DNA of 23,327 nt from a virus, in IMG/VR virus record IMGVR_UViG_3300029705_000088; one strand, 5' to 3'. This document shows, one piece after another, positions 4,309 through 21,836 of the stretch. The notes beneath the pieces were generated by a model that worked only from the letters and a program-made list of their open reading frames with translations, was not told where the DNA came from and made no database searches. The stretch's first letter is position 1. Every line of letters starts with the position of its first letter. Position numbers and translations under genes: made by a program.

Positions 4309-4337
4309 TTGACTTTTGGCTTGATATGTGGTATAAT
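4309..4337 (+). promoter_or_regulatory. Sigma70-type promoter
   Basis: ttgact at 4309-4314 and tgtggtataat ending at 4337, 17 bp apart. Confidence 0.8.
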
Positions 4338-4371
4338 ATATATACAGAAAAGAAAGAGAGGTACATCACAA

Positions 4372-4575
4372 ATGACTAACACTAAAATTTATTTTGAGGT
4401 AGAAATTGAGGGCGTAGTAACCCAATTCAATAATTTCAATGATGCCCGTGATGAGTATAACGCGCTCATGGAATGCGGTTTCTACGAAGCCACCCTTCAC
4501 AGAGTAGAAGAAGTCAATGGCGACAAATACATAGTAGTATGGAATGACAGAAGTGCTTGCTTTTTCCCCCGCTAA
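4372..4575 (+). CDS. Hypothetical small protein (67 aa)
   Basis: ATG at 4372 with RBS aaagagagg. Confidence 0.65.
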   Translation: MTNTKIYFEVEIEGVVTQFNNFNDARDEYNALMECGFYEATLHRVEEVNGDKYIVVWNDRSACFFPR

Positions 4576-4604
4576 AAATCTTTAAAAAACTTTCGCAAAA
4601 CCCC

Positions 4605-4633
4605 TTGACAAATCGCTCAAAGTATGATATAAT
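4605..4633 (+). promoter_or_regulatory. Sigma70-type promoter (canonical class-A copy aaaaccccttgacaaatcgctcaaagtatgatataat)
   Basis: ttgaca at 4605-4610 and tataat at 4628-4633. Confidence 0.85.
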
Positions 4634-4675
4634 ATATATACCCCCGATACAGGGGGTAGAAAGAGAGATAGACCA

Positions 4676-5380
4676 ATGAACACAGAAAAGATTGACCGCC
4701 GCAGACATTACATTATCGTGCTTGACACGGAAACCGCAAACACCTTCCGCGATGAAAGAGGACAGCTTGACACAAGTAGTACACTTGTGTATGACCTTGG
4801 GTGGGCGGTAACTGATAAGCATGGAAACATCTACCGCAAAAAGAGTTTTGTAAATTCTGATATTTTCTTCCATGAAGCTGAACTGATGAAGTCGGCATAC
4901 TACGCAAATAAAATCCCGCAGTATCTCGCAGACATTGAAGCGGGTAGGCGCATTGTGGCTAATACCTATCAAATGCGCTCGGCTCTGCTGAATGATATCG
5001 CAGATTTCGCAGTTGATACAATTTGCGCGCATAACGCCCGTTTTGACTACAACAGCCTAAACAGCACAGAGCGCTGGACTACAAAAAGCAAGTACCGCTA
5101 TTTTCTCCCTTATGGAATTACAATTTGGGACAGTATGAAGATGGCGCAAAGTGTAATCGGAAAGATGCCCACCTACCGCGCATTTTGTGAAGAACATGGT
5201 TATCTGACAAAAACTGGCAGACTTTCCATGACAGCGGAAAATCTTTACAGATTCATTTCCCGCAATAATGATTTTGTTGAAAATCATACAGGGCTTGAAG
5301 ATGTGGAAATTGAAGCGCAGATAATGGCGTACTGTTTCAGACAACACAAGGCAATGCAGAAAGAGTTATGGGGGAATTAA
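4676..5380 (+). CDS. DnaQ-like DEDDh 3'-5' exonuclease (234 aa)
   Basis: Exo I is IIVLDTETAN, Exo II is AHNARFDYNSL, and Exo III is HTGLEDVEIEAQ. The leader hairpin ccccc gataca ggggg lies at 4641-4656. Confidence 0.75.
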   Translation: MNTEKIDRRRHYIIVLDTETANTFRDERGQLDTSSTLVYDLGWAVTDKHGNIYRKKSFVNSDIFFHEAELMKSAYYANKIPQYLADIEAGRRIVANTYQMRSALLNDIADFAVDTICAHNARFDYNSLNSTERWTTKSKYRYFLPYGITIWDSMKMAQSVIGKMPTYRAFCEEHGYLTKTGRLSMTAENLYRFISRNNDFVENHTGLEDVEIEAQIMAYCFRQHKAMQKELWGN

Positions 5381-5429
5381 TCCCCCATGACTACCGCAAA
5401 AAAAACTTTAAGAAATTTCGCAAAACCCC

Positions 5430-5458
5430 TTGACAAAACCGCAAAAGTATGATATAAT
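5430..5458 (+). promoter_or_regulatory. Sigma70-type promoter driving the tRNA-like gene
   Basis: ttgaca at 5430-5435 and tataat at 5453-5458. Confidence 0.8.
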
Positions 5459-5498
5459 ATATATACAGAAGAGAGGAACAAATCCTCCCCGATAATAT

Positions 5499-5605
5499 GG
5501 CAGTGAGATAGAAGCGGCTCTATTTCCATAAAGATGGCTTGAGATACAACAAATGGAAACGTTCGCCATTGGAAAACGTAGGTTCAACTCCTACCACTGC
5601 CTCCA
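5499..5605 (+). tRNA. tRNA-like gene, non-canonical length (107 nt). It has a 7-bp acceptor stem, a canonical T-arm and 3' CCA, but the middle part does not fold into a standard anticodon arm.
   Basis: ggcagtg at 5499-5505 pairs with cactgcc at 5595-5601. The T-arm gtagg-ttcaact-cctac is at 5578-5594, the discriminator t is at 5602, and CCA is at 5603-5605. A D-arm-like atag aagcggct ctat is present. I could not place a 7-nt anticodon loop with U33, nor find a CUA anticodon. Confidence 0.45.
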
Positions 5606-5636
5606 AAAAATTTTTCAAAAACTTTTGCAAAACCCC

Positions 5637-5665
5637 TTGACAAATCGCTCAAAGTATGATATAAT
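5637..5665 (+). promoter_or_regulatory. Sigma70-type promoter (class-A copy)
   Basis: ttgaca at 5637-5642 and tataat at 5660-5665. Confidence 0.85.
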
Positions 5666-5749
5666 ATATATACCGAAGCAAGAGGGCACGACCTCCAATC
5701 GGTAAAATAAAAATAATGGGTAGCGACCTACGCTGAAAGGATTGATACC

Positions 5750-6139
5750 ATGGCTACTACTAACTCTACTTCCAAGAAGCTCACTAAGCGCGACCACTTC
5801 AACACCCTGCTCCAGCTCCCCGAAGTTGCCGCAAATCCCGCACTCGTTGATTTCATCAACAACGAACTTGACCTGCTGGCTCGCAAGAACAACAGCGACA
5901 ACAAGAAGCTCACTGAAAAGGACATCGCAAATCAGGGGCTTAAGGCGGCGATTCTTGAATTCGCAACCGCGAGCGGCGAACAGCACACTGTTACCGACTT
6001 CATCAAGAACGTGCCTGCGTGCGCTGGACTTTCTCCGCAGAAGATTACCGCACTGGTTCGCCAGATGGTAGAAGATGGCAAGCTTGAAAAGGTAATCGTA
6101 AAGCGCGTATCTTACTTCCGCATTCCGGAGGGGGTTTAA
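5750..6139 (+). CDS. Hypothetical protein (129 aa), cassette A gene 1, with a possible C-terminal winged helix
   Basis: An 80-nt structured leader ends ...gctgaaaggattgataccATG. Codon usage is rich in C-ending codons. It is a paralogue of 9851..10249. Confidence 0.8.
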   Translation: MATTNSTSKKLTKRDHFNTLLQLPEVAANPALVDFINNELDLLARKNNSDNKKLTEKDIANQGLKAAILEFATASGEQHTVTDFIKNVPACAGLSPQKITALVRQMVEDGKLEKVIVKRVSYFRIPEGV

Positions 6140-6170
6140 TCCCCCTCCCCCAAGAGGGGGGACGTAATCC

Positions 6171-6527
6171 ATGAGCGAACAGGAAAAAGCAATGCGGCGG
6201 CTCGGCTTTACAGATGAAGAAATCGCCGACGTAATGGACGCAGATAAGCGCATTGACAAGGGCGAAAAACTATTTGAGCAGACCGCCGAAGAAAAGAACG
6301 CAAGTAAAGAATTGCGGCGAGCACCGCGCAAAGTCGTTGACGCATACGGCAAAGCAAGCACCAAGGAACGCAAAAGCGACAACGACAAGCAAGCACTAAT
6401 CAAAGGCATTGAAATGGCAATTTTTGACAAAGTGGAAAATCTTACCATTATCAATCCCGAACGTGAAATGGAGTTTCTTTACAATGGTAGAAAATTCAAG
6501 TTGACTCTATCTGCTCCCCGAAAGTAA
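6171..6527 (+). CDS. Hypothetical protein (118 aa), cassette A gene 2
   Basis: ATG at 6171 after the stacked hairpins gaggggg/ccccctc and ccccc aagag ggggg. It is a paralogue of 10285..10692. Confidence 0.75.
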   Translation: MSEQEKAMRRLGFTDEEIADVMDADKRIDKGEKLFEQTAEEKNASKELRRAPRKVVDAYGKASTKERKSDNDKQALIKGIEMAIFDKVENLTIINPEREMEFLYNGRKFKLTLSAPRK

Positions 6528-6537
6528 ATATTTTCCA

Positions 6538-6570
6538 AAATGCATATTACAAATGTAATATGCATTTTTG
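6538..6570. promoter_or_regulatory. Perfect AT-rich palindrome (aaaatgcatattaca aa tgtaatatgcatttt), a candidate operator or terminator
   Basis: The 15-bp arms are exact reverse complements. Confidence 0.5.
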
Positions 6571-6589
6571 TTTATTTTGACGAAAATTT

Positions 6590-6790
6590 CCAGTTCACAA
6601 ATTGTTTACAAAATATACTTGATTTGTTCAAACGCGCGTCGCCGATGGTGGCGCGCGTTTTTTTTGTCAATAGGTAATGTATACAAATTTTCAGAAAATT
6701 TTTGGGCGTTTTTAGTCAATTCATACAAATCCCGCAATTATGAACATTTTGTAAACAATAAAGAAAACCTATTGACTTTTTTATTATAAT
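6590..6790. repeat. About 190-bp intergenic repeat element, copy 1 (tttacaaaatatacttgatttgttcaaac, a GC hairpin with T-run terminator at 6631-6668, then ...caaatcccgcaattatgaacattttgtaaa...)
   Basis: Close similarity to 11150..11340. The GC hairpin aaacgcgcg...cgcgcgttttttttt is visible. Confidence 0.8.
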
Positions 6791-6800
6791 ATGATATAAT
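6772..6800 (+). promoter_or_regulatory. Sigma70-type promoter
   Basis: ttgact at 6772-6777 and tgatataat ending at 6800, 17 bp apart. Confidence 0.8.
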
Positions 6801-6845
6801 ATATATACAGAAAACAAAGAGCCAACAGGCAAAGGAGATAAAACA

Positions 6846-7277
6846 ATGAAAAATATTTACGCTGTTAAGAATTACGTCCGCTTTGATGATGAATGGGAAG
6901 AAATTTTTGTGTGGGATTACAATTATGAGTATCTCACCCCCGAAGAAGCAAAAACCTTTGAAGATACTTTCCGCACGACCTGCCGCACGTTTGAGGAACT
7001 GCGCGAAGAGGTAGACAGATTCCCCGGTATCAAAGAAAATTATACCTTTTTCCGGCGCAGTCCTTACATCCGTGTGCAGGGTTCTGATTGGGATAGCTAT
7101 GGCAAATATTATGATGAAAAGCATTTCAAGAAGCCTATTAGCTTCAAGAAGGTCTGTAAAAGAGTTAATAACCTTTCCATTAATGATTTGATGAAAGTAT
7201 TAACTGCAGAAGATTTTGCAGACTGGTGGAAAGACCACGCAGGCGAAACGCAGTGCCCGTTCAAAAAGAATTCATAA
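6846..7277 (+). CDS. Hypothetical protein (143 aa)
   Basis: RBS aaaggagataaaacaATG. Confidence 0.8.
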   Translation: MKNIYAVKNYVRFDDEWEEIFVWDYNYEYLTPEEAKTFEDTFRTTCRTFEELREEVDRFPGIKENYTFFRRSPYIRVQGSDWDSYGKYYDEKHFKKPISFKKVCKRVNNLSINDLMKVLTAEDFADWWKDHAGETQCPFKKNS

Positions 7278-7296
7278 AATAAATACAAATTATACA

Positions 7297-7325
7297 TTGA
7301 CTTTCTCTCTTGGATGTGGTATAAT
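7297..7325 (+). promoter_or_regulatory. Sigma70-type promoter
   Basis: ttgact at 7297-7302 and tgtggtataat ending at 7325. Confidence 0.8.
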
Positions 7326-7367
7326 ATATATACCCTCCAAGAGAGAGGGTAGAAAGAGGTAAAACAA

Positions 7368-7604
7368 ATGAGAGTTGAGGACATGAGAAATAAGGACAAA
7401 GAGGTAACAATTAAAGACATTAAAGTCGGTGAATGCTTCATTGACTGTGATGGCGATTTAAATATGAAAATAAAAAATATTGAATCTTTTGATTATGAAT
7501 CTATTAATGCTGTAGTGCTTTTAACTGGTCAACTGTGGGCTTGTGATGAAGATAGCCCTATAACTCCAGTAAAAACGCACATTGTAATTGAATCGGAGGG
7601 ATAA
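7368..7604 (+). CDS. Hypothetical protein (78 aa)
   Basis: Leader hairpin ccctc caagaga gaggg at 7333-7349. RBS agaaagaggtaaaacaaATG. Confidence 0.7.
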   Translation: MRVEDMRNKDKEVTIKDIKVGECFIDCDGDLNMKIKNIESFDYESINAVVLLTGQLWACDEDSPITPVKTHIVIESEG

Positions 7605-7610
7605 AAAAAA

Positions 7611-8084
7611 ATGAATATTTTAATTTTTGCAATCGCTACTGTAATTAACGTATCACTTTCCACTATCCGCGCCATTACCACCATTAAAAGCGGTAAATGG
7701 CTGTCCGCTGTGATGAATGCGGTTTGTTATGGTTTCTATCCTCTGATTGTCATGCTGACCGCGCAAGGCACCGTAGGCATTTTGGTGAATATGGCAATTA
7801 CTGCCATCGCAAATTTCATCTGCGTATGGATTATTAAGTTTGTAGAGGAAAAGGCGCGTAAAGATAAACTCTGGAAGATTGAAGCATCTGTGTGTGAGCC
7901 TTACACCGAAAGCCTTTATAATGACTTAAGAGAAAATGGAATTTCTTGTAATTATATTCCCAACATTGGTAAATATACCATTTTCAACATTTACGCAGAA
8001 ACGCAAGCGCAAAGCCTTATTGTAAAAGGACTGCTTGAAGCCAACAAAGCAAAGTATTTTGTGAGCGAAACAAAAATTCTTTAA
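7611..8084 (+). CDS. Membrane protein, UPF0316/DUF2179-like (157 aa). It has N-terminal TM helices and a soluble C-terminal domain.
   Basis: RBS ggagggataaaaaaaaATG. The hydrophobic N-terminus carries a TIR motif, and the layout resembles the UPF0316 (YebE-type) family. This family assignment is recalled from memory and is not a verified similarity. Confidence 0.6.
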   Translation: MNILIFAIATVINVSLSTIRAITTIKSGKWLSAVMNAVCYGFYPLIVMLTAQGTVGILVNMAITAIANFICVWIIKFVEEKARKDKLWKIEASVCEPYTESLYNDLRENGISCNYIPNIGKYTIFNIYAETQAQSLIVKGLLEANKAKYFVSETKIL

Positions 8085-8103
8085 AAAACTTTCGCAAAAC
8101 CTA

Positions 8104-8132
8104 TTGACAAATTCAAAAAAGTGTGGTATAAT
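8104..8132 (+). promoter_or_regulatory. Sigma70-type promoter with TTTCGCAAAACC element
   Basis: ttgaca at 8104-8109 and tgtggtataat at 8122-8132. Confidence 0.8.
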
Positions 8133-8174
8133 ATATACATCCCCGATACAGGGGATAGAAAGGAATAAAACAAA

Positions 8175-8498
8175 ATGAAACTTGGTATTATTTTAGCAAA
8201 ACGTAAAATGGATGAAGAAGATACTGGACATCGCATCATTAAAATTGAAACAAACAATAATGATTTCAAACAGATTATTGATAAATCAATATATATAAAT
8301 AAACATTATAAAGAAACAGATGTTGTGACACGTAGAAAAACTTTTGATAAATTGTGTGATTTACTGGATGAAATTGTTAAACCATATTGTAAAGCAGATG
8401 AAGCAGTTATTTTTGCTTGTACAGCAGATGGTTATGCATTTATTTATGATGATGAAGATTTGGTAAATGAAACAATGAAATATATTTTTAATGAATAA
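8175..8498 (+). CDS. Hypothetical protein (107 aa)
   Basis: Leader hairpin atcccc gataca ggggat at 8139-8156. RBS aaaggaataaaacaaaATG. Confidence 0.7.
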   Translation: MKLGIILAKRKMDEEDTGHRIIKIETNNNDFKQIIDKSIYINKHYKETDVVTRRKTFDKLCDLLDEIVKPYCKADEAVIFACTADGYAFIYDDEDLVNETMKYIFNE

Positions 8499-8515
8499 AA
8501 ATTTTACTAAATCCC

Positions 8516-8544
8516 TTGACAAATAAGCAAAAGTGTGGTATAAT
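8516..8544 (+). promoter_or_regulatory. Sigma70-type promoter
   Basis: ttgaca at 8516-8521 and tgtggtataat ending at 8544. Confidence 0.8.
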
Positions 8545-8591
8545 AATAGTACCCCAATACAGGGGGCACTAAAAGAGAGAGGTAAAATAAA

Positions 8592-8849
8592 ATGACAAGA
8601 ATTGTAAAGCAAATGAAAATGGCAAAAATTTATGTTCCCGCTTGTTATGTTGATGGTGGACAAGGCTCTCGTGGCAACTGGACAAAAGAGACAATTTTTT
8701 ATACGGGTGCTTACACCAGCGAAACAGATATGCAGGAAAAATTTATTAAAGCAAAAGAAGAATGGGATAAAAAGAAAAAAGAATCGTGGGATACTTATTA
8801 TACAGAAGTAAAACTTATAGATTGGTGGGAAAATGTAGAAATTTTGTAA
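8592..8849 (+). CDS. Hypothetical protein (85 aa)
   Basis: Leader hairpin cccc aatacag ggggg. RBS agagaggtaaaataaaATG. Confidence 0.7.
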   Translation: MTRIVKQMKMAKIYVPACYVDGGQGSRGNWTKETIFYTGAYTSETDMQEKFIKAKEEWDKKKKESWDTYYTEVKLIDWWENVEIL

Positions 8850-8855
8850 AACCCC

Positions 8856-8884
8856 TTGACAAATCCGAAGAAATGTGATATAAT
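8856..8884 (+). promoter_or_regulatory. Sigma70-type promoter overlapping the end of the upstream CDS
   Basis: ttgaca at 8856-8861 and tgtgatataat ending at 8884. Confidence 0.8.
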
Positions 8885-8926
8885 AATAGTACCCCCAATA
8901 AAGGGGGGAGAAAGAGGTAAAATAAA

Positions 8927-9160
8927 ATGAAAGTTGCTGTTACACTTTATCGCACGATTGAAATGGATGTAAATGAAGAAGTTTTTGAAAGACTTCATGA
9001 AATCCATAAAGACCCTACCACTTTTGGAGAAGATGAAGATTATTCCGAAGCAAAAGAAATTATCACAAACAGACTGCTGGCACGCTGTGAACTTCATAAT
9101 GGTGAAGAAATTATCGGCGTGTATGCGGCGGAAGATGATATTCCGATTCTTGAATTTTAA
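8927..9160 (+). CDS. Hypothetical acidic small protein (77 aa)
   Basis: Leader hairpin ccccc aataaa gggggg. RBS agaaagaggtaaaataaaATG. Confidence 0.7.
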   Translation: MKVAVTLYRTIEMDVNEEVFERLHEIHKDPTTFGEDEDYSEAKEIITNRLLARCELHNGEEIIGVYAAEDDIPILEF

Positions 9161-9163
9161 TAA

Positions 9164-9200
9164 GGAGAGGGCGCAAGCCCCTCTCTTTCTTTTACTTTTG
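9164..9200 (+). terminator. Intrinsic terminator (ggagaggg cgcaag cccctctc followed by tttcttttactttt)
   Basis: GC stem followed by a T-run. Confidence 0.75.
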
Positions 9201-9472
9201 GCATTCATAATTTATTTACAAATTATTTATAAAAAACACTTGACTTTTGAGTCGCCCGCGGCCGGAGGTCACGGGCGAAATTTTGTCAAGAGATATCGTA
9301 TAAAAAAATTGTAAACATTTTATTAACAATCAAGTGAATTAGCCGTTTTCCCGTAATAAAAAATTAACAAATGAACATAGACTCGTTCACATATTATACC
9401 ATTACCAAAAATTGACAATCTGACTTGTTCTTGGATATTGAAAAAATTTTTTGAGAAATTTTGAAAAACCTC

Positions 9473-9501
9473 TTGACAAAAACGTGATTGTGTGGTATAA
9501 T
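9473..9501 (+). promoter_or_regulatory. Sigma70-type promoter with no ORF downstream (first of three tandem promoters)
   Basis: ttgaca at 9473-9478 and tgtggtataat at 9491-9501. Confidence 0.75.
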
Positions 9502-9579
9502 ATATATGTACCAAACAAAAGGATGCGCGGGGACGCCGAAAGCCACTCAAAAAAATTTGAAAAACTTTTCAAAAACCCC

Positions 9580-9608
9580 TTGACAAATCGCTCAAAGTAT
9601 GGTATAAT
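9580..9608 (+). promoter_or_regulatory. Sigma70-type promoter (class-A copy) driving an ORF-less structured transcript
   Basis: ttgaca at 9580-9585 and tataat at 9603-9608. Confidence 0.8.
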
Positions 9609-9614
9609 ATATAT

Positions 9615-9720
9615 GTCAGGGGCGAGGGTGAGTAAAACCTCGTAAAAAATCTCCTCATCAAGTGAAGTCCAAAATGCGATAAATTGACTTCAAATCTTGA
9701 TAGTATCGCAAAAAATTTTT
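9615..9720 (+). ncRNA. Candidate small non-coding RNA (about 105 nt): a 5' hairpin plus an H-type pseudoknot, ending in AAAAAATTTTT
   Basis: There is no ORF beyond a 10-codon one. The 5' hairpin is cgagg...cctcg (9623-9642). The pseudoknot has S1 at 9657-9669 paired with 9686-9701, and S2 tgcgata (9675-9681) paired with tatcgca (9704-9710), interleaved. Confidence 0.4.
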
Positions 9721-9741
9721 GAAAAACTTTTCAAAAACCCC

Positions 9742-9770
9742 TTGACAAATACCATAAAGTATGGTATAAT
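9742..9770 (+). promoter_or_regulatory. Sigma70-type promoter for cassette B
   Basis: ttgaca at 9742-9747 and tataat at 9765-9770. Confidence 0.8.
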
Positions 9771-9850
9771 ATATATACCGGGTGAGGGAAACCTACCACG
9801 GCAAACAAATTAAAAGGTTGGCAACCTAAACAGCTGAAAGGATTGATACC

Positions 9851-10249
9851 ATGGCTAACACTAATTCTACTCTCAACGCTACCGCAAAGAAGCTCACCAA
9901 GCGTGACCACTTCAACGCCCTCCTCGCTATCCCCTCTGTAGCATCTAACCCCACGCTCGTTGAATTCATTGAAAATGAGCTTGACCTACTGGCTCGTAAG
10001 AACGCTAAGCCGTCTGGCAAGCAGATGGAAAAGAAGGAAGCAAACGATGCGCTGAAGCAGGCAATGCTTGACTACCTCGCAAATGATGGCGGTCAGCACA
10101 CCGTTACTGACTTCATCAAGAATGTTCCCGAATGCGCTGGACTGTCCCAGCAGAGAATCACTGCGCTTGTCCGTCAGCTGGTAGAAGATGGCAAGATGGA
10201 AAAGGTGATTGAAAAGCGCGTTTCCTACTTCAAGCTGGCAGAGGTTTAA
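9851..10249 (+). CDS. Hypothetical protein (132 aa), cassette B gene 1, paralogue of 5750..6139
   Basis: The same structured leader ending gctgaaaggattgataccATG. About 60% identity to the cassette A protein by eye. C-ending codon bias. Confidence 0.8.
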   Translation: MANTNSTLNATAKKLTKRDHFNALLAIPSVASNPTLVEFIENELDLLARKNAKPSGKQMEKKEANDALKQAMLDYLANDGGQHTVTDFIKNVPECAGLSQQRITALVRQLVEDGKMEKVIEKRVSYFKLAEV

Positions 10250-10284
10250 TCCTCTGCCACGCCTAACCAAAAGAGGTGATGAAG

Positions 10285-10692
10285 ATGGAACTGACCCGAG
10301 CCGACAAAGCGCAAGTCAAGCGAATTCAAGAGGGCTTGCGCTGTACCGAAGAAGAAGCTCTTGAGGTTTTGTCCTATGACAAGGAAGTTGAGAAGGCTTC
10401 CGCTAATGACAGGCTGGCGTACGACCTTGACAAGGAGACAGAGAAGGAAGCGATGCGTATGGCTAACTGCCGCGACCGCAAGCCTACTGTTTACAATTTC
10501 TCCCAGCGTGAGCGCAAGGCAAATCCCACAAAGGGCGGAATAATCGCAGAATTGGCGGAGTTTTTGACAAAAAACAGTCAGTTTGCGACCGAAGATGTGG
10601 AAATTACCAACAAAGAACGGCAAATTGCGTTCAAAATTGGTGAAGATGCCTTTGAATTGACGCTTGTTCAGAAGCGAAAGCCCAAAAAGTAA
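10285..10692 (+). CDS. Hypothetical protein (about 136 aa), cassette B gene 2, paralogue of 6171..6527
   Basis: RBS aagagg. Candidate ATGs lie at 10279 and 10285; the track uses GTG at 10276. Confidence 0.7.
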   Translation: MELTRADKAQVKRIQEGLRCTEEEALEVLSYDKEVEKASANDRLAYDLDKETEKEAMRMANCRDRKPTVYNFSQRERKANPTKGGIIAELAEFLTKNSQFATEDVEITNKERQIAFKIGEDAFELTLVQKRKPKK

Positions 10693-10694
10693 AG

Positions 10695-10724
10695 AAAAGT
10701 GGGAATTTTTCCCACTTTTCACTT
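10695..10724 (+). terminator. Intrinsic terminator (aaaagtggga atttt tcccactttt)
   Basis: 10-bp stem followed by a T-run. Confidence 0.7.
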
Positions 10725-10749
10725 AAATTTTAGTCAAAAAGATGCAAAA

Positions 10750-11097
10750 ATGGCAGAAAAAGAGTTTCTTTATGTGGGTTTTTACCACGATACCGACAAA
10801 AATTTTGTTCTAAAGATTGGAACAACTAACGACCTAAAGCGCAGACAGGCAGAGCACACGCGCAATTATAGGAAAAGCCCTGAACACACAATGCCGCCAG
10901 ATGGCAAATTTACCTATTTATGGAAGCTGCCCCTTTCAAAATATAATACTCTGCGTTTTGAGGACAGAAACCGCCAAAAGTGGCAGGAAATGGGAATTGG
11001 TGAATATGTGCGGAACGACCGCTTTGTTCTCCATGAAATTCCACCACAGGTAGAAATTACCATCCGCAAAACTTATACAATCCCTCTACTGATGTAG
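10750..11097 (+). CDS. T5orf172/GIY-YIG-superfamily protein (115 aa), with no promoter of its own, inserted into copy B of the duplicated cassette
   Basis: FLYVGFYHDTDKNFVLKIGTTNDLKRRQAEH matches the GIY..YIG..R..H pattern and is paralogous to 1875..2240. The gene ends with TAG inside a terminator hairpin. Confidence 0.7.
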   Translation: MAEKEFLYVGFYHDTDKNFVLKIGTTNDLKRRQAEHTRNYRKSPEHTMPPDGKFTYLWKLPLSKYNTLRFEDRNRQKWQEMGIGEYVRNDRFVLHEIPPQVEITIRKTYTIPLLM

Positions 11098-11112
11098 AGG
11101 GATTTTCTTTTG
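11082..11112 (+). terminator. Intrinsic terminator (ccctctac tgat gtagaggg plus a T-rich tract) that contains the TAG stop
   Basis: Perfect 8-bp stem followed by attttcttttg. Confidence 0.65.
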
Positions 11113-11149
11113 TGCATAATGACGAAAATGCTGTGTTCATAATTTATTT

Positions 11150-11340
11150 ACAAAATATACTTGATTTGTTCAAACGCCCGCGACCGGAGGCCACGGGCGT
11201 TATTTTGTCAAGTGGTAATCTATACAAATTTTCAGAAATTTTTTTAACATTTTTGTACAAACCGCACAAATCCCGCAATTATGAACATTTTGTAAATAAA
11301 CAAGAATATCTATTGACATTTTTATAAAAATATGATATAA
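11150..11340. repeat. About 190-bp intergenic repeat element, copy 2 (homologue of 6590..6790)
   Basis: The same tttacaaaatatacttgatttgttcaaacgc, a GC hairpin (gcccgcgaccggaggccacgggcg), and ...caaatcccgcaattatgaacattttgtaaa. Confidence 0.8.
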
Positions 11341-11341
11341 T
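11313..11341 (+). promoter_or_regulatory. Sigma70-type promoter
   Basis: ttgaca at 11313-11318 and tgatataat ending at 11341. Confidence 0.8.
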
Positions 11342-11381
11342 ATATATACAGTAAAGAACCAACAGAAAGAGAGCAAATAAA

Positions 11382-11579
11382 ATGGATATGTGGATGAGCG
11401 ACCTTTTAGAAGCTACCGCAAGAGTAAAAGTACATAAAGGAAAAAATTTCTGTATCAAGTCTGCCCTTCCTGCGGTTGATGGCATTGTATTTGAAACTAC
11501 TTACTTCACTTACATTAAATGGTATCGCGCAGATGGACGCATTGAAGAACATTCTAAAGACGCATGGAGGAATAAATAA
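11382..11579 (+). CDS. Hypothetical protein (65 aa)
   Basis: RBS agagagcaaataaaATG. Confidence 0.65.
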   Translation: MDMWMSDLLEATARVKVHKGKNFCIKSALPAVDGIVFETTYFTYIKWYRADGRIEEHSKDAWRNK

Positions 11580-11580
11580 A

Positions 11581-11808
11581 ATGAATACACTTGTAATCAG
11601 CGAAAAGTTGATTGAATACTTTGAGCAGGAAGTAAAAGACGCAGAAAGAGCGCTTGAACGCAATCTTTACACGCCCCTTGAAATCGTAGATAACGCAAAA
11701 CAGCGAATGCTTGGAGCGACTACTCTGTGCCAGTATCTTGGTATTGAATATTTGTTCCTTGAAGCAAACTATGAAGCATACACAAAAAAACTTGAAAAAC
11801 TTTTATAA
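11581..11808 (+). CDS. Hypothetical protein (75 aa)
   Basis: ATG at 11581, in frame within the 11476..11808 ORF. RBS aggaataaataaaATG, with the stop and start adjacent. Confidence 0.65.
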   Translation: MNTLVISEKLIEYFEQEVKDAERALERNLYTPLEIVDNAKQRMLGATTLCQYLGIEYLFLEANYEAYTKKLEKLL

Positions 11809-11814
11809 AACCCC

Positions 11815-11843
11815 TTGACAAATCGCGCAAAGTATGGTATAAT
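11815..11843 (+). promoter_or_regulatory. Sigma70-type promoter (class-A copy)
   Basis: ttgaca at 11815-11820 and tataat at 11838-11843. Confidence 0.85.
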
Positions 11844-11887
11844 AATAGTACCCCCCAGAGAGGGGGGGAGAAAGAGAGTAAAATAAA

Positions 11888-12295
11888 ATGGAAAAAGTAA
11901 TGTATTTTATCGCAGAAGATGGCACGCAGTTTGAAGATGAATTTGACTGCGTACAGTATGAAGAAGAACTCCACATTAAGCAGGTGTTTGAACCTTTCTC
12001 CTGTTATGATATCAATGGACATCTTCTTGACACTAATGACGAGCATTTTGAATCCGATGATGTATATTATATTCTTGTAAAAGAAGATAATTACGAAGAT
12101 GGAAGTTATATGGAGCTGGATGATTTTATTTTTGATGGTGAATTACCTGCTCTTAGCCATGTTTTCAAAGATACTGATACCACGTTGATTTATTTCAATC
12201 GTAATTCTGACACTTGGGAAAACTGGCACGAAGAATTCAACAGGCTTACTGAAATGATGAAAATGTTTCAACTGTTTGCGGGGAAGGGCGAGTAA
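11888..12295 (+). CDS. Very acidic hypothetical protein (135 aa), a candidate DNA-mimic or anti-restriction type
   Basis: Leader hairpin cccccc agaga ggggggg. D and E residues heavily outnumber K and R residues. Confidence 0.75.
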   Translation: MEKVMYFIAEDGTQFEDEFDCVQYEEELHIKQVFEPFSCYDINGHLLDTNDEHFESDDVYYILVKEDNYEDGSYMELDDFIFDGELPALSHVFKDTDTTLIYFNRNSDTWENWHEEFNRLTEMMKMFQLFAGKGE

Positions 12296-12319
12296 TCGCC
12301 CTTCATGGAGGTAAAGAAA

Positions 12320-12475
12320 ATGACTTGTAAAGAATGCGGCTACTGTTGGAAAGAAGAGTGCGAGAAATACGCCCATTGCCACTTTGAAGGCCCGGAAGGT
12401 TGGGCACCTTGTGAGCAGGAAGAAGAGTACGAAGAAGAAGAAGATGAGGAGGATGATGAAGATGAAGCCGAATGA
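12320..12475 (+). CDS. Cys-rich small protein with a poly-acidic tail (51 aa), absent from the ORF track because it is under 60 aa
   Basis: Strong RBS ggaggtaaagaaaATG. Product is MTCKECGYCWKEECEKYAHCHFEGPEGWAPCEQEEEYEEEEDEEDDEDEAE. TGA at 12473-12475. Confidence 0.55.
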   Translation: MTCKECGYCWKEECEKYAHCHFEGPEGWAPCEQEEEYEEEEDEEDDEDEAE

Positions 12476-12731
12476 AGAAACTTTACTTGATTTAATGAAC
12501 GAATACAATGCTTTGAAACAGAAGCTTGCTAACGTTGAAAGTGCTATTAAATCACATCAAAAACAGGGCGCTAAAGAGCAGTTACGAACAGCTTTTGCTA
12601 TTTTGGAAAAAATTAACAATGACAACATTTTTGGTGATGACGATTATTATTCTGATGATTTGAATGAATATATCAATTTAACAACCATTGTTAATTGCCT
12701 TGGTTCATTTATTGAAGAAGTGGTCAAATGA
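12456..12731 (+). CDS. Hypothetical coiled-coil protein (about 91 aa); the start is uncertain (12444 to 12462) and it overlaps the previous gene in another frame
   Basis: RBS gaggagga lies upstream of a cluster of ATGs. The ORF runs 12384..12731. Confidence 0.6.
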   Translation: MKMKPNEETLLDLMNEYNALKQKLANVESAIKSHQKQGAKEQLRTAFAILEKINNDNIFGDDDYYSDDLNEYINLTTIVNCLGSFIEEVVK

Positions 12732-13210
12732 CCACTTCTTTTTCGTTATTTTATACAAAAATAATTTGTTTACAAATTATGATAGATTTGTTCACATTTG
12801 CGCCGCCCGATTGCGCTCGCGCAGGGCGGGATTTCCATTTTTTACCATATTTACAAAATTTTGCGGCGATTTCCAGGATTTTCCAGTCCAGCCAGATTTT
12901 CCCATATTCTACACCTGTCAAGCGGTCCGGGCGCGGGCGCTGCGGACCGAGTTCCCGTTCGGACCCCCATATGCGAATTTTTTGCTACTTCTAGCGACCC
13001 TCAGCCTATATGCGCATTTTCCTATAATTCTAGTACCCCAGCCAGCCGACCGGAATTGTAAAATTTTTGTAAAAATTTTTGTAAAATTTTTATGAACGCG
13101 CGATTTCTCCAGAGATACGCCAGTGCTTATCTATTGAGAGCTACGGCTTAAATAAAGACCCTCTCCCTCACATTTACTCAAAAATTTTTTTGCGTGGCTT
13201 AAAATGCCGA
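12732..13210. repeat. About 480-bp non-coding island with a GC-rich core (12800-13060), several repeat families, and the boundary between the two promoter classes
   Basis: Tandem repeats of about 42 bp lie at 12965-13006 and 13007-13048. A triple tgtaaaattttt repeat lies at 13056-13095. Hairpins include cggtccg..cggaccg, and atttcc(a)g direct repeats are present. Confidence 0.7.
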
Positions 13211-13213
13211 AAT

Positions 13214-13242
13214 TTGACTTTTTTAAAAATTTATGATATAAT
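13214..13242 (+). promoter_or_regulatory. Sigma70-type promoter, class B (ttgactttttt aaaaatt tatgatataat)
   Basis: ttgact at 13214-13219 and tataat at 13237-13242. The promoter plus leader is about 60 bp and nearly identical to 16085-16145. Confidence 0.8.
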
Positions 13243-13876: not shown

Positions 13877-14098
13877 AAGAAAGGATGAGGGATGACGATG
13901 ACGAGGGAAAAGTGATGAGTGTCTAGTGGAGCCGAACGGCACGACACCTCTCCAATTTTCGCAATTTTTATTACTTATTACTTTATTTACTTATTATTAT
14001 CTATATAATTATTATCTATTATCTATACAGTTGTTATCCATTATCAACCTATTACTTACTACCTACTACCTATTATCTATATTGTTACCTACCTACTA

Positions 14099-14299
14099 TC
14101 ACAACACCCAAATAACTCCCTGCCGCAACAACTTCCTTCTCTCCTTGCCAATCTCCTTAAACCTCTTCCTCTCCTCCGCCTCAAACCCTCTCAACAACCA
14201 ACATCCAAGAGCAGAAGAAAAAGAAACTCTTTTCAACACATACCTAACAACTGCGCCTAGCACCAAGCCAACTACTACACCTGCCGCGACCCCTATCAT
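14099..14299 (-). CDS. Small membrane protein (66 aa), the last gene of the minus-strand operon
   Basis: Its start overlaps the upstream stop as ATGA. It has an N-terminal hydrophobic helix and a basic C-terminus. Confidence 0.6.
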   Translation of the reverse strand: MIGVAAGVVVGLVLGAVVRYVLKRVSFSSALGCWLLRGFEAEERKRFKEIGKERRKLLRQGVIWVL

Positions 14300-14648: not shown

Positions 14649-14930
14649 TCATTTTTCAAATACATTCTATAAAATAGAATCCGCATCATCAAAATTAAAA
14701 TTCATACCCTATAAAAAAGGATTATCCTCTCTTTCATTTTTATTTTCAAATATATTATAGCATATTTTTTTATCTTTATCAACTCTTCTTTTATTTTCTA
14801 AAACAAAGAAAATTTTTCCAGTTGTTTCATCTATATACAATTCTTTTACTTTTCTATGAGGCTGCTTCGCAACCTCTGATAAACCTGAATGATAATCATT
14901 TTCACTTAATTTTACAAAACCGACTTCCAT
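14649..14930 (-). CDS. Hypothetical protein (93 aa) containing two in-frame TAG codons, consistent with amber being read as sense
   Basis: Strong RBS aaaaaggagaattcaaaATG. The frame is open from 14930 to TGA at 14649-14651, apart from TAG at 14709-14711 and 14667-14669. The track truncates this ORF at the first TAG. Confidence 0.55.
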
Positions 14931-14995
14931 TTTGAATTCTCCTTTTTCACTTCAGTTTTCCGCCCCTATCAACAGAAAAAAATTTTCTATAAGAA

Positions 14996-15033
14996 ATTTA
15001 TGTTCCAAGCGATAGCTGGAACATAAATTTCGC
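14996..15033. promoter_or_regulatory. Perfect palindrome (aaatttatgttcca agcgatagct tggaacataaattt) upstream of the minus-strand gene, a candidate operator
   Basis: 14-bp exact inverted arms. Confidence 0.5.
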
Positions 15034-15059
15034 TTTGTTAATTATTTAGTTTTTAGTAT

Positions 15060-15145
15060 TATTTAGATATAATATGAAAAATTACCCTTTTTTCCTTTTT
15101 ACTAACTATTAAAAATTGCCCTCACTAACTATTAAAAATTACCCT
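15060..15145. repeat. Three copies of the 24-bp motif (plus form ACTAACTATtAAAAATTrCCCTtt; minus form AAAGGGTAATTTTTAATAGTTAGT)
   Basis: Copies lie at about 15064-15084, 15091-15113 and 15124-15145. Confidence 0.75.
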
Positions 15146-15146
15146 T

Positions 15147-15830
15147 TTATTTCTTTTTACTATTATATACTAAAGATACATTTAATAATTTTTTCTTTGG
15201 TACTTTATTAATATAAATGGTTTCATAGTCAATTAATTTTGAATTATATAATAATTCTAAAGCGTGATTAATTATATCATAAGCTCTCTAATTATTTTTT
15301 ATATATATACCTATATGTTCTGCTATTTCATTCAAAGTAAAAATATAATTTTCCTACTATTTTAATCTTTTATTCTAATCTTCTTTATATTTATATTTCT
15401 AAACTAAATAAATATAAATTTTAATAATATGTTCCCGACAGTTATCCTATAAATATTCTAAAGTTGCTAAAGGAATATCTAAATAAATATTTTCTTTTAC
15501 TGGCAAATAATAATCTCCATTCTCTTTTTCCACTAAATACCCCTAATCTTTTAATGACTTCAAATGCGCTCTTAATGTTTTTGGACTTTTAATTTTTAAT
15601 TTTTCACACATATCTATTTGTTTTGGAATAATTGATTTCTTTACTACTGTTTCATATACTTCATAAGCCACACCCTTATCATCTTTTTTACAAACTTTTT
15701 CTGCTATTGAAATAGACTATAACAATCCATACAATTCACCATCTAATGTATTTGTATTTAAAAAAGTTTCATAATCTAATGTAGTATCCGCAGGAAACCT
15801 TTTTTCAATCTAATCTTTTGATTTTACCAC
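15147..15830 (-). CDS. Double winged-helix DNA-binding protein, RepA/replication-initiator-like (about 227 aa); the frame contains 8 in-frame TAG codons and no TAA or TGA
   Basis: RBS GGAGG, 7 nt, then GTG at 15830. The frame stays open to TAA at 15147-15149 apart from 8 TAGs. The translation carries two clean winged-helix motifs, MCEKLKIKSPKTLRAHLKSLKD*GYLVEKENGDYYLPV and FTLNEIAEHIGIYIKNN*RAYDIINHALELLYNSKLI. No ORF of at least 60 aa is called here in any frame. Confidence 0.6.
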
Positions 15831-15849
15831 AAGGAAACCTCCAATCTAA

Positions 15850-16065
15850 ATTTTACTAACTATGAAAAATTACCTTTCTAGTCGCACAATTATTTCAATT
15901 TCATTTATTTATATTTTACCTTTTTTGTCCAATATTTTTAGGTAATTTTACCTTTTTTAAAAGTAATATTCTAATAATATTTCTATTAAAAAATTAATAA
16001 AAATATTACTTACTAACTATGAAAAATTACCTAAAATTTTACTAACTATTAAATTTTACCCTTTT
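15850..16065. repeat. At least four further copies of the 24-bp motif family, between the divergent minus-strand operon and the plus-strand promoter
   Basis: ttttactaactatgaaaaattacctttc at 15851-15878, weaker copies at 15905-15960, then copies at 16007-16030 and 16035-16062. Confidence 0.75.
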
Positions 16066-16084
16066 CTAATTAACAATAACTCTA

Positions 16085-16113
16085 TTGACATTTATAAAAA
16101 AATATGATATAAT
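16085..16113 (+). promoter_or_regulatory. Sigma70-type promoter, class B
   Basis: ttgaca at 16085-16090 and tataat at 16108-16113. Near-identical to the 13214 promoter and leader. Confidence 0.8.
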
Positions 16114-16145
16114 ATATATACAAAATAAAAAAAGGAGATAAAATA

Positions 16146-16561: not shown

Positions 16562-16573
16562 AAGTATCGTAAT

Positions 16574-17041
16574 ATGAAAGAAATTAAATATTGTAAAACT
16601 TGCGGTTTCCGAGACCCCTAGCAACCTGTATGTCAGTTGCTCGGGCATTAGATAAACCCAGAAATTGATTATTGTTCTCGGCATAATGCCGAACCTTTCA
16701 CCTGCGCGCAATGTCACCGCATTTTAACTTTACCAATTTTCCTAACTCCTGGAGGCGCAATCTGTGATGAATGCCGACTAGCCTTATCTACTTGCGCTGG
16801 TTGCCGCAATTCTTCAACTTGTCTTTTTGAAAGCGACCCATCTCCAGTGCTGAAAGTAATTCAACAACAAATCCGTCAGGGAAACATGGTAATTCAACAA
16901 CAAGTAAAAAACCCGTTGCGCATCCAAATTACCTGTGAAAAAGGTTGTCCTTGTTACGATAAAGAAAATGGTTGCCGTAGACAATTAAATTCATGTGAGA
17001 ACCACAAATCTATTATCCAGGAGGAAGAAACTAATGATTGA
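16574..17041 (+). CDS. Cys-rich protein (155 aa) with two in-frame TAG codons, missing from the ORF track as a full-length ORF
   Basis: The frame is open from ATG 16574 to TGA 17039-17041 apart from TAG at 16619-16621 and 16649-16651. It contains CxxC-type pairs throughout, and the track ORF 16847..17041 is its 3' end. Confidence 0.55.
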
Positions 17042-17375
17042 CCCCAATCGTGTCTTAGACTTCATTGACCATTTCACATAGGCTGGCGACCGCAAACAAG
17101 TAATTGAATGCTTCACTTGCGGCAATTGCTTCTGGTTCGCTTATATTCTCCATGGACGTTTCTCTGCCGAACCAAATGTCCAATGTGAAATTATGTATGA
17201 CGAAGTAGAAAATCATTTCGCCACAAAAATTGATAATGAAATTTATGATATTACCGGCATCGTAACCAATCAATACGATTGGATTGCGTGGTCTGACTTA
17301 TGGAAGAAAGACCCTTCTTTAAGCAAACGTATTATTCGTGATTGTGTAAAACAGGAGATAATAGAAAATGAATAA
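17034..17375 (+). CDS. Hypothetical protein (113 aa) with one in-frame TAG (17079-17081)
   Basis: Strong RBS caggaggaagaaactaATG at 17034. The ATG overlaps the upstream stop. The frame is otherwise open to TAA at 17375, and the track shows only the distal 60 aa. Confidence 0.65.
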
Positions 17376-17613
17376 TTTTTTTAAACTTGTAATTTCTGAC
17401 CGCGTAGATTATATTAATCTTAATTTTGTAGAACAAGTTAATATCAGTAATGCTTGTGATAGTAAGAAAAGACCTACAGTAACATTCTATTATAGGAGTG
17501 GAAAAACTTCAGAATATAATATGGGCAAAGAAGATTTACAAAAATTAATTCAAATCTTAGAGGAAAAAGATATTTATATTGAACCAATAGTAGCGAGGAA
17601 ATTAAATGAGTAA
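17368..17613 (+). CDS. Hypothetical protein (81 aa)
   Basis: Its ATG overlaps the upstream stop. The stop is TAA. Confidence 0.7.
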   Translation: MNNFFKLVISDRVDYINLNFVEQVNISNACDSKKRPTVTFYYRSGKTSEYNMGKEDLQKLIQILEEKDIYIEPIVARKLNE

Positions 17614-17881
17614 ATTTAACATCTATTATGCGGGAACTCATTAGGCAGAATTCCAAGAGGAATTGGAATTTGAGACACCGGCCGCCGCACTTGATTACGC
17701 GGAGAAACGAGCCATTGAGGATTATGAAAGTAATTGCGGCGGCAACGGTTATCTATCTTGGGAAGAGTGTCGTGAGGAATTAATTCATTCAGGCGAAGAA
17801 GAAATAACTGATGAGGATGTGGATAATTATTACAGAGAAGTAATATACTCCACAATACAATACCATGTAGAAAAAATATAA
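17606..17881 (+). CDS. Hypothetical acidic protein (91 aa) with one in-frame TAG (17642-17644)
   Basis: RBS gaggaaattaaATG at 17606 overlaps the upstream TAA (ATGAGTAA). The frame is open to TAA at 17881, and the track begins the ORF at TTG 17663. Confidence 0.6.
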
Positions 17882-20225: not shown

Positions 20226-20495
20226 ATGGAATATCATACTGAATTTGTAGTCAATTTGAGTACGCTTGAAAAAGAATTAAAAATTCAGTGTAATCTTGAA
20301 GTAGATATTTGTAAATTGTTTGATTTCCATCTTGATGACCCAAGAGCACCTTATAAACAGTTATGGTTTGATGAAAACACAATTACAAGTCTTTATACGG
20401 AAAATTATGATAATGAACAAAGACGTATAATTTATAATTTTCTTGAAGATACATTTTATGATAGAGATTTTATTCTCGTTGATATAACTAAATAA
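20226..20495 (+). CDS. Hypothetical protein (89 aa)
   Basis: RBS aaaagaggagaaaataaaatATG. Confidence 0.8.
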   Translation: MEYHTEFVVNLSTLEKELKIQCNLEVDICKLFDFHLDDPRAPYKQLWFDENTITSLYTENYDNEQRRIIYNFLEDTFYDRDFILVDITK

Positions 20496-20497
20496 TA

Positions 20498-20671
20498 TGT
20501 TTGATAATTTATATTTGCCTCTTTTTTTGATGGATAGAAAAGAAAAATTAGATATGGTCGTTCAGCAGATAATTGAAAATGGTACTTATAGTATTATAGA
20601 AGATTTTTCTCCTGCTGAATTGGACTATATTAGAGAGGAAGTAAGTAAGCGATGTCAAATGAAACTATTGT
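20498..20671 (+). CDS. Possible small protein (57 aa) ending with TAG; it overlaps the start of the next gene
   Basis: ATG lies 2 nt after the upstream TAA. The translation is protein-like (DRKEKLDMVVQQIIENGTYSIIEDFSPAELDYIREEV). There is no RBS. Confidence 0.35.
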
Positions 20672-21836
20672 AGCACAAAAGAATAAGATAGAATGTTTTT
20701 CAAATAATGAGTGGGTTAATGTTGTATTAACTCTTTTTAACAAAGAAGTAAAAGATAAAAAGTATGATAAATTGGGTTATAATAAATGGCGTAATTTATC
20801 AGAATTTGAAGGTTTAATTTATATTGAATTACTTGGTCCTGAAATTTGTGTCCATGAAGAAAATTTTCTTGACGAATATTATTTTAGGATTGATGATAAT
20901 TCATTTGGTGAATTTTTATTTGACCAATATTTTAAAACTATAAAATTAGATATGCCTGAACCTGAAAAAGTTAATATAACTGGTGGAGCTGTTAATGCTC
21001 TTGGGGAATTAACTGATTATTGCATGAAAATGACTACTGATGAAATGCTAAATTATAGAACTTCCGCACAATCTTTAAGTGAATCAATTGATTGTTTGAG
21101 TAAACGTATTGATGTAGTTAAAGATGACATTGATAATCTTTATGCGACAAAACTTGATGTAGATAATTATAATCTTGATAAAGAAAATGATAAGGAGAAT
21201 AAAACAATGATGAAGGGTTTTAATTTTGATTTTGGTTCTTGCGAAAATGATAATGTCCGTATGTCTCTCTATGGTCTTGCCGTAAAGAATGCTGCTGGTA
21301 ATTGGGTTTCTTATAACCAGCAGACTGGTGATATTGTGGATGTGGATATTCTGAATTTTGATGGCGGCAAGTGGATGTGGAAGATGCCGGTTGCGATTAA
21401 GGATGTAATTCCTGGCGCAGTAATTATTCATCAGCGGAAGCCCATGTTTGTTAAGGAAGCTGTTGAAAATAACAAGAAGCTGCTTGTTATTGATGTAATC
21501 AACGGTGAGGAAAAGATGATTCTGCCTGTGCGCTCGCCGTTCGGTTTTGATTTCGTAACGCAGGTAGTCTCGCTGTTTAATCTTAATAACACCGCAACCG
21601 CAGACAATCCGTTTGGTAATATGCTTCCTTTCCTTCTGATGGATGATGACGCAAGCGTAGAAAAGGTATTCCCTCTGATGATGATGAATAGTAATTTCAA
21701 TCTTACGAATAATCCCATGTTTATGTATGCGTTTATGAGTGGTAAGAATGATATGAAGGATATGCTTCCTTTGTTCGCAATGATGAATCGGACTCCTATT
21801 CCTGTTAATGTAATGACTCCTCCTTCCAATAACTAA
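20652..21836 (+). CDS. Hypothetical protein (394 aa) with a low-complexity Met/Pro/Asn-rich C-terminus
   Basis: RBS gaggaagtaagtaagcgATG. Confidence 0.85.
   Translation: MSNETIVAQKNKIECFSNNEWVNVVLTLFNKEVKDKKYDKLGYNKWRNLSEFEGLIYIELLGPEICVHEENFLDEYYFRIDDNSFGEFLFDQYFKTIKLDMPEPEKVNITGGAVNALGELTDYCMKMTTDEMLNYRTSAQSLSESIDCLSKRIDVVKDDIDNLYATKLDVDNYNLDKENDKENKTMMKGFNFDFGSCENDNVRMSLYGLAVKNAAGNWVSYNQQTGDIVDVDILNFDGGKWMWKMPVAIKDVIPGAVIIHQRKPMFVKEAVENNKKLLVIDVINGEEKMILPVRSPFGFDFVTQVVSLFNLNNTATADNPFGNMLPFLLMDDDASVEKVFPLMMMNSNFNLTNNPMFMYAFMSGKNDMKDMLPLFAMMNRTPIPVNVMTPPSNN

Follow-up and report, generated by a model that had tools for sequence, protein, structure and literature searches.

A gene with in-frame TAG codons encodes a tandem winged-helix protein between candidate iteron arrays in large uncultivated phages

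The window analyzed here is a 23,327-nt stretch of viral DNA (IMG/VR record IMGVR_UViG_3300029705_000088). Between positions 14931 and 16145 its ORF list holds no table-11 reading frame of at least 60 aa, as the initial annotation had pointed out. The same annotation had placed in this gap a minus-strand frame of 227 codons, preceded by a ribosome-binding site and interrupted only by TAG, and our analysis bore this frame out (Table 1). From the GTG at 15830 to the TAA at 15147–15149 there are 227 sense codons with no TAA or TGA among them, and TAG is present at codons 7, 38, 96, 128, 144, 152, 158, 159, and 181. A GGAGG sequence is found at the same place in the homologs. The locus is the AT-richest part of the window (22% GC). 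Within this region of ~22% GC, the run without TAA or TGA in the frame of the gene extends over 240 codons, compared with a mean of 71 and a maximum of 154 for the longest such run in 2000 dinucleotide-preserving shuffles of 14931–16145. The other two frames of the gene contain 14 and 26 TAA or TGA codons.

Table 1. Positions of the gene, its predicted domains, and the flanking DNA elements in the window; iterons are candidate sites.
Feature	Position	Strand	Evidence or remark
TAG-recoded gene, 227-aa tandem winged-helix protein	15147..15830	-	GTG start, TAA stop, 9 in-frame TAG
Ribosome-binding site GGAGG	15838..15842	-	7 nt 5' of the GTG at 15830
Winged-helix domain 1 (residues ~31-108), recognition helix IKSPKTLRAHLKSL	15507..15740	-	P0001 model, alignments, Pfam HTH_11 and LexA_DNA_bind
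Winged-helix domain 2 (residues ~121-218), recognition helix NNQRAYDIINHALELL	15177..15470	-	P0001 model, alignment
Two upstream iterons, GGTAAAATTTAATAGTTAGTAA and GGTAATTTTTCATAGTTAGTAA	16010..16060	-	direct repeats
Inverted repeat of the conserved half-site (GGTAAAATTACC), candidate operator	15941..15952		~110-120 bp 5' of the start
Isolated half-site GGTAAAATAT	15911..15920	-	repeat comparison
Third upstream iteron, candidate autoregulatory site	15853..15874	-	ends 10 nt 5' of the ribosome-binding site
Three downstream iterons, 23 and 34 bp spacing	15065..15143	-	start 3 nt 3' of the stop codon
AT-rich stretch with CTAAATAA-type short repeats (TATCTAAATAATACTAAAAACTAAATAATTAAC), candidate DNA-unwinding element	15037..15069
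Perfect 15-bp hairpin with 9-nt loop	14993..15031	-	-21.4 kcal/mol RNA free energy, z -6.9
Divergent sigma-70 promoter TTGACA-17-TATAAT with TG	16085..16113	+	bounds the upstream iteron region

Searches with a translation in which TAG was replaced by Gln returned 98 homologs of ~200–215 aa with 43–84% identity, all of them metagenomic. A profile search that covered 1.84 billion representatives then gave 832 cluster representatives, 432 of them at E ≤ 1e-10. Many members from the profile search are short fragments, probably the result of gene callers stopping at TAG. The genes of the family carry 0–11 in-frame TAG codons, and the fetched relatives, which have 1–11 each, cannot be translated under table 11. 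Members are found on viral contigs of 100–200 kb, all of which read TAG as sense. Which amino acid it encodes is seen in an alignment of 30 loci: column 81 contains 15 TAG and 14 Gln and nothing else, and column 197 contains 12 TAG and 17 Gln. These columns correspond to TAG codons 38 and 144 of the window gene. The codon is also exchanged for CAA or CAG between close relatives. Loci L005, L006, and L007 encode the same protein with the two kinds of codon swapped at individual sites, and the window gene has CAA at a position where its 84%-identical relative in L001 has TAG. The window gene has only one CAA or CAG codon; with its nine TAG codons read as Gln, its Gln content is a normal 10 of 227 residues. 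The proposal that the in-frame TAG codons encode Gln is borne out by the columns holding only TAG and Gln and by the TAG/CAR exchange, and we regard it as nearly certain that the gene is real and is read in this way. A decayed pseudogene within a non-coding AT-rich spacer would also present nine stops under the standard code and no table-11 ORF of at least 60 aa. However, its interruptions would hardly all be TAG, with TAA and TGA absent over 240 codons at 22% GC, and the homologs have the same length, are under purifying selection, and carry TAG at invariant Gln columns. On the strength of these alignment columns and the shuffle test we rejected this reading, which has next to no probability.

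Once TAG is read through, 40 of the 40 complete frames in the window terminate in TAA or TGA (the 41st leaves the window). Three genes (10693–11142, 14649–14951, and 20488–20730) have TAG only near the C-terminus, where the codons could be true stops. They could also act as stops early in infection and be read through later, giving two protein lengths. A tRNA search detected no suppressor tRNA in the window or in the 37 fetched loci. Nucleotide and protein searches of GenBank phages gave no match to the gene, and a search of PLSDB gave a single distant match. A hint to the host comes from two matches in Clostridia metagenome bins (Eubacteriales and Lachnospiraceae).

The TAG codons are distributed very unevenly. 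The winged-helix gene has nine TAG codons to one CAR codon, versus 7 TAG to 125 CAR in the other 40 genes of the window (Fisher p = 2e-9), and thus holds 9 of the 16 in-frame TAG codons of the window. A similar distribution was seen in three divergent relatives. In L006, all TAG codons are in this gene and its co-directional neighbors, and none of the 41 flanking genes on the opposite strand contains one. In L008 and L010, TAG is mostly confined to the gene and its co-directional neighbors, with 1–2 of the ~27–30 opposite-strand genes containing it. These three loci have one to three such co-directional neighbors each. The plus strand of the window bears 24 near-identical consensus sigma-70 promoters with an extended −10 element (TTGACA-N14-TGnTATAATATATATAC), roughly one per small gene, at 123–13214, 16085, 18462, 20163, and 21873; similar promoters are found on the minus strand at 14782 and 17943. 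The genes behind these consensus promoters are almost all free of TAG. The promoter scan of the window found no consensus promoter ahead of the winged-helix gene. Past the divergent promoter, three plus-strand genes (16562–17041, 16989–17375, and 17606–17881), one encoding a Cys-rich and one a YunG-like protein, have 1–2 TAG codons each, at codons 13–26; these early codons could be translational gates in an early-transcribed operon.

The window resembles the early part of a large phage genome. Its annotated matches include T5orf172, YunG-like, DnaQ-like exonuclease, and HAD-type proteins. The same protein is encoded on contigs of 183,900 and 183,814 bp whose break points differ, which suggests a circular or circularly permuted genome of ~184 kb. 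At the far end of the minus-strand island lies a non-coding, low-complexity segment (13970–14100) that is purine-rich when read on the minus strand, has a local GC skew of −0.66, and contains TAGGTAG, TAGATAATA, and GTAATAAGTAA repeats; these resemble the CTAAGTAA-type repeats that adjoin the iterons. An apparent duplication of two genes was observed on the plus strand at 5750–6527 and 9851–10692, where the first genes start with MATTNSTSKKLTKRDHFN... and MANTNSTLNATAKKLTKRDHFN..., with a related second gene behind each of them. The two copies occupy the GC-richest parts of the window (45–47% GC).

Gut phages that use genetic code 15 read in-frame TAG as Gln and have recoded a subset of their genes (10.1101/2021.08.26.457843; PMC9523058). 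Recoding in these phages centers on structural and lysis genes, and replication genes are described as 'variably' recoded (10.1101/2021.08.26.457843; PMC9523058). According to the published model, genes that are translated first avoid the recoded stop codon (Borges et al., 10.1101/2021.08.26.457843). The phage investigated here is similar in that TAG is read as Gln, recoding is partial, and the genes that are likely to be expressed first are free of TAG. Unlike in the code-15 studies, its densest use of TAG (90% of Gln codons) is in a module made up of a DNA-binding protein and repeats that sits within a TAG-free block. Such a TAG-dense island, which differs from the published code-15 focus, recurs in the relatives.

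The initial annotation had recognized two winged-helix motifs in the translation. An AlphaFold2 model of P0001, a protein that is 84% identical to the window protein, was built with a 79-sequence alignment (pLDDT 89.2). The model has two winged-helix units, and both motifs correspond to helix-turn-helix-plus-wing elements in it. A conserved linker, LPxxEDIYxxIPLxT, joins the units. The recognition helix of domain 1 (IKSPKTLRxHL) is nearly invariant in the family, and that of domain 2 (xxRxYxxIxNAL...) differs between lineages. Judged by this model, we are confident that the product is a tandem winged-helix protein. Pfam searches gave only generic winged helix-turn-helix signals on residues ~64–108, namely HTH_11, LexA_DNA_bind, and HTH_36. 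In BFVD, the proteins that match best over the full length come from gut phages and are unannotated.

The repeats on both sides of the gene were analyzed with the motif GGTAAWWWTTMATA. Allowing at most one mismatch, it occurs six times in the 23-kb window versus 0.77 times expected by chance, and all six matches are on the minus strand, at 15073–15143 and 15861–16060. The direct repeats that had been proposed to flank the gene are therefore real; their unit is ~22 bp (GGTAATTTTTMATAGTTAGTAA) with a spacing of 23–34 bp, not exactly 24 bp as first described. The last downstream iteron is fused to TATCTAA. The divergent promoter upstream drives in the direction of the plus-strand gene block. A scan for intrinsic terminators did not find a canonical one, the hairpin at 14993–15031 having no adjacent T-run, and Rfam gave no match in the whole window, hairpin included. 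The rest of the window and the 10-kb flanks analyzed in the relatives contained no further copy of the repeat motif. A role as global regulator was rejected, as the motif is confined to the locus within 20–23 kb. The idea that the repeats constitute a phage promoter was also rejected because they form tandem arrays past a stop codon and other genes lack them. Across the locus, the GC skew keeps its sign, save for a local inversion that tracks gene orientation.

The layout was then compared in ~30 loci with 40–84% protein identity, drawn from ENA/Logan contigs and from viral contigs in IMG/VR (up to 201 kb), and the order of the elements was found to be shared. Upstream of the gene, the relatives have 1–6 direct repeats of 22 bp. 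Most relatives also have an inverted repeat built from two copies of the conserved half-site, GGTAAAA-N-TTTTACC, at −61 to −124. Downstream, 2–3 repeats with a spacing of 21–24 bp begin at the stop codon or within a few bases of it in the ~30 loci. Up to 11 phased direct repeats are present in L005–L007. In most of the loci, the last iteron is fused to TATCTAA(A/G)TAA and is followed by 2–4 AT-rich copies of CTAARTAA. The relatives have a hairpin ~95–135 nt past the stop codon, with a lineage-specific stem and recurring loops of TCGCTTCGCTC or CCTTCGG (L015, L024, L026, L037, L038, and others). Each repeat consists of a conserved half, GGTAA followed by an A/T run, and a lineage-specific half, of which ATAGTTAGT, GGATAGTT, TCTACCATACTT, CCTTGGTTCGAT, and GTGCTAGTAT are examples. 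The recognition helix of domain 2 changes in parallel with the repeat type, and the helix of domain 1 is almost constant. The initial suggestion that the flanking repeats are candidate cognate iterons thus gains from the ~30 loci, in which the repeats keep their position and co-vary with the protein. Judging from this co-conservation and co-variation, the protein very probably recognizes the flanking repeats.

Genes downstream of the module vary by lineage, and no conserved downstream partner was found in the loci compared. We also found no conserved helicase, helicase loader, or primase beside the gene, and neither the window nor the relatives' 10-kb flanks contain a partition NTPase (TubZ, ParM, or ParA). 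Some ten contigs, among them those of L009, L011, L014, L017, L032, L034–L036, and L040, end 0.3–2 kb from the locus, and in L007 a run of N (10800–10920) interrupts the repeat array. The contig ends near the locus probably reflect breakage of the assembly at the repeats.

A rep gene between two iteron arrays is familiar from P1 (incC-repA-incA), F (incB-repE-incC), and pPS10 (RepA). In P1 repA, F repE, and pPS10, an inverted partial iteron is present upstream as well. Iteron origins feature a protein with two winged-helix domains along with phased iterons, next to which lies an AT-rich block made up of short repeats (PMC10797057). The module in the window resembles the P1, F, and pPS10 replicons in its two winged-helix domains, in the phased direct repeats of ~20–22 bp on both sides of the gene, in the inverted partial iteron at the upstream operator position, and in the AT-rich repeats that adjoin one array. 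Unlike these replicons, it has no detectable sequence or whole-chain structural tie to Rep_3, its protein is smaller (~205–227 aa), it belongs to a large, lytic-looking phage genome, and it uses TAG for Gln.

The protein had initially been likened to initiators of the Rep_3/RepA type, and membership in this family was not supported. The window protein gave no significant match to Rep3_N (PF01051) or Rep3_C (PF21205). Sub-threshold Rep3_N matches were obtained for 1 of 79 close relatives (E 0.0077) and 5 of 60 distant relatives (best 1.3e-4). As a positive control, the Rep_3 protein of plasmid pRGI00117 was included in the same scan and matched Rep3_N at 1.6e-33 and Rep3_C at 1.8e-17. Whole-chain structural likeness to RepE, pi, or RepA was not found. 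With the positive control in place, membership in Rep_3 was therefore rejected on both the profile and the fold tests. What stands of the two-winged-helix initiator layout first proposed are the two domains and the flanking repeats; the Rep_3/RepA family membership does not.

The circular plasmid pRGI00117 (L041, HG796263.1; 7.2 kb) encodes a distant relative of the winged-helix protein (27% identity). The segments of note on this element are 5906–6700 and 1186–2099. The gene for the relative has TAG at codon 3, and its annotated start was placed too far downstream. Its layout is the same with unrelated repeat sequences, comprising its own three 23-bp repeats and AT-rich repeats. The element also bears a Rep_3 replicon that is complete and has three separate 22-bp iterons. 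Since the module coexists with this replicon, the protein need not be a replication initiator. Several further frames of pRGI00117 contain in-frame TAG, and the element may be a TAG-dependent plasmid or satellite.

Phage initiators and helicase loaders such as lambda O, SPP1 G38P, and DnaD-like proteins also share features with the module, in that origin repeats are coupled to the gene and the DNA-binding domain is a winged helix. Weak PHROG and BFVD matches to these groups were obtained. In BFVD, the matches (E 0.01–0.04) are labeled replication initiator, replisome organizer, and O protein. Among the PHROGs, the DnaD-like loader phrog_186 gave weak and partial matches to 14 of 79 close and 8 of 60 distant members, and several PHROGs labeled 'replication initiation protein' gave weak matches to a few members each. 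Phage_rep_org_N weakly matched 1 of 60 distant members. Unlike in these groups, a C-terminal helicase-recruiting domain is absent and the repeats are outside the coding sequence. For the characterized initiator families searched (Rep_3, RepA_N, lambda O, and DnaD), sequence and fold comparisons gave no significant match beyond the weak signals described.

As the best single reading of these data, we lean somewhat toward an iteron-type protein that would bind an origin and regulate its own gene. Evidence for a function comes foremost from the DNA architecture. In a phage of probably ~150–200 kb, uncultivated and reading TAG as Gln in some of its genes, the 227-aa protein would most likely bind the ~22-bp direct repeats that flank its own gene. 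The GGTAA(W)n half of the repeat, which is conserved, would be read by the nearly invariant domain 1, and the lineage-specific half by the variable domain 2. The downstream phased repeats, AT-rich short repeats, and hairpin together have the layout expected of an iteron-type replication origin, and the upstream repeats and the inverted half-site repeat are placed such that they could autoregulate the gene. Several observations count against a role at an origin, namely the lack of homology to characterized initiators, the lack of a conserved replication partner nearby, the constant sign of the GC skew, and the fact that pRGI00117 has a Rep_3 replicon in addition to the module. The data show the gene, its use of TAG for Gln, the fold, the conserved and co-varying repeat architecture, and the distribution of TAG; from these we infer that the protein binds the repeats, that the locus functions as an origin, and the timing discussed below.

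All significant sequence matches of the family are to winged-helix domains of the transcription-factor type: LexA_DNA_bind matches 56 of 79 close relatives and HTH_36 matches 53 of 79, and MarR, TrmB, Crp, MecI, and DeoR are also represented. These matches raise the question whether the protein is a locus-specific transcription factor without a role in replication, whose targets would be the divergent promoter and the small gene island to which it belongs, with the repeats as operators and the hairpin as terminator. An iteron abuts the ribosome-binding site, the inverted repeat lies ~100 bp upstream where a promoter would be expected, and a perfect divergent promoter bounds the upstream array, all of which would suit such a regulator, as would the coexistence with the Rep_3 replicon on pRGI00117. 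However, the most conserved array is past the stop codon and not at a promoter, and it is always followed directly by AT-rich short repeats, which operators do not need. Neither the up to 11 phased direct repeats in L005–L007 nor the lack of conservation of the downstream genes that would be regulated fits well with this explanation, and we consider it unlikely.

The best PHROG match of the family is phrog_3396, which is labeled ScpB and matches 30 of 79 close and 41 of 60 distant members; the window protein itself gave no match to it. ScpB, MukE, and JetB (KITE proteins) and phrog_3396 resemble the family in their tandem winged-helix architecture and similar size as well as in these many PHROG matches. 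The protein could accordingly act in segregation or compaction, as a ScpB/KITE-like or centromere-binding protein on a centromere-like repeat array that serves partition or recruits an SMC-type complex. Weak TubR and AspA matches in the profile search and the independent Rep_3 replicon beside the module on pRGI00117 are compatible with such a role. In contrast, Pfam SMC_ScpB (PF04079) matched none of the 139 members scanned, and no kleisin, SMC, ParA, ParM, or TubZ partner is conserved nearby. Unlike ScpB and KITE proteins, the family co-evolves with adjacent DNA repeats, and ScpB and KITE proteins are not known to bind repeats in a sequence-specific manner. AT-rich repeats of the unwinding type beside the array are not a centromere feature either. 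A function in segregation or compaction is therefore quite improbable.

That contigs of ~10 relatives end close to the locus would also be expected if the repeats formed the site where packaging starts and the protein bound them in the manner of a small terminase or a pac-binding protein; for one distant member, a weak match to a small-terminase PHROG was obtained. However, the contig ends are scattered on both sides of the locus, and repeats and repeated promoters suffice to explain such assembly breaks, as illustrated by the N-run in the array of L007. The contigs of 183,900 and 183,814 bp represent the same genome but break at other points. The large terminase gene is adjacent in none of the loci, and the fold of the P0001 model has no oligomerization domain. 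Packaging is thus a very remote prospect.

If the protein is an iteron-type origin-binding protein, its use of TAG bears on when it could be made. Because TAG accounts for nine of its ten Gln codons, codon 7 among them, and no sigma-70-type promoter precedes the gene, its synthesis would be expected only after TAG suppression has been set up in the infected cell. A bolder proposal, which we put forward tentatively and consider doubtful, is that the initiator is written in the alternative code and that firing of the origin is licensed only after the TAG switch.

TAG recoding in gut phages and modules that combine iterons with a winged-helix protein were each already known separately. What is new is a large unannotated family of tandem winged-helix proteins with co-evolving repeats in phages of 100–200 kb, and a TAG-dense module that recurs within a block rich in promoters and free of TAG. 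With standard annotation, a gap of 1.2 kb appears in place of this conserved gene, which belongs to a family with hundreds of cluster representatives. The recurrence of the TAG-rich island in relatives suggests that the code switch times or restricts more than structural and lysis genes. The module offers candidates for both the origin and the initiator of a large group of uncultivated 100–200 kb phages without a known origin, and a defined candidate pair of protein and DNA site with natural specificity variants. If the tentative proposal made above is true, the genetic-code switch would be coupled directly to the onset of genome replication, and the family would represent tandem winged-helix initiators that were not described before and that are widespread in phages of 100–200 kb.
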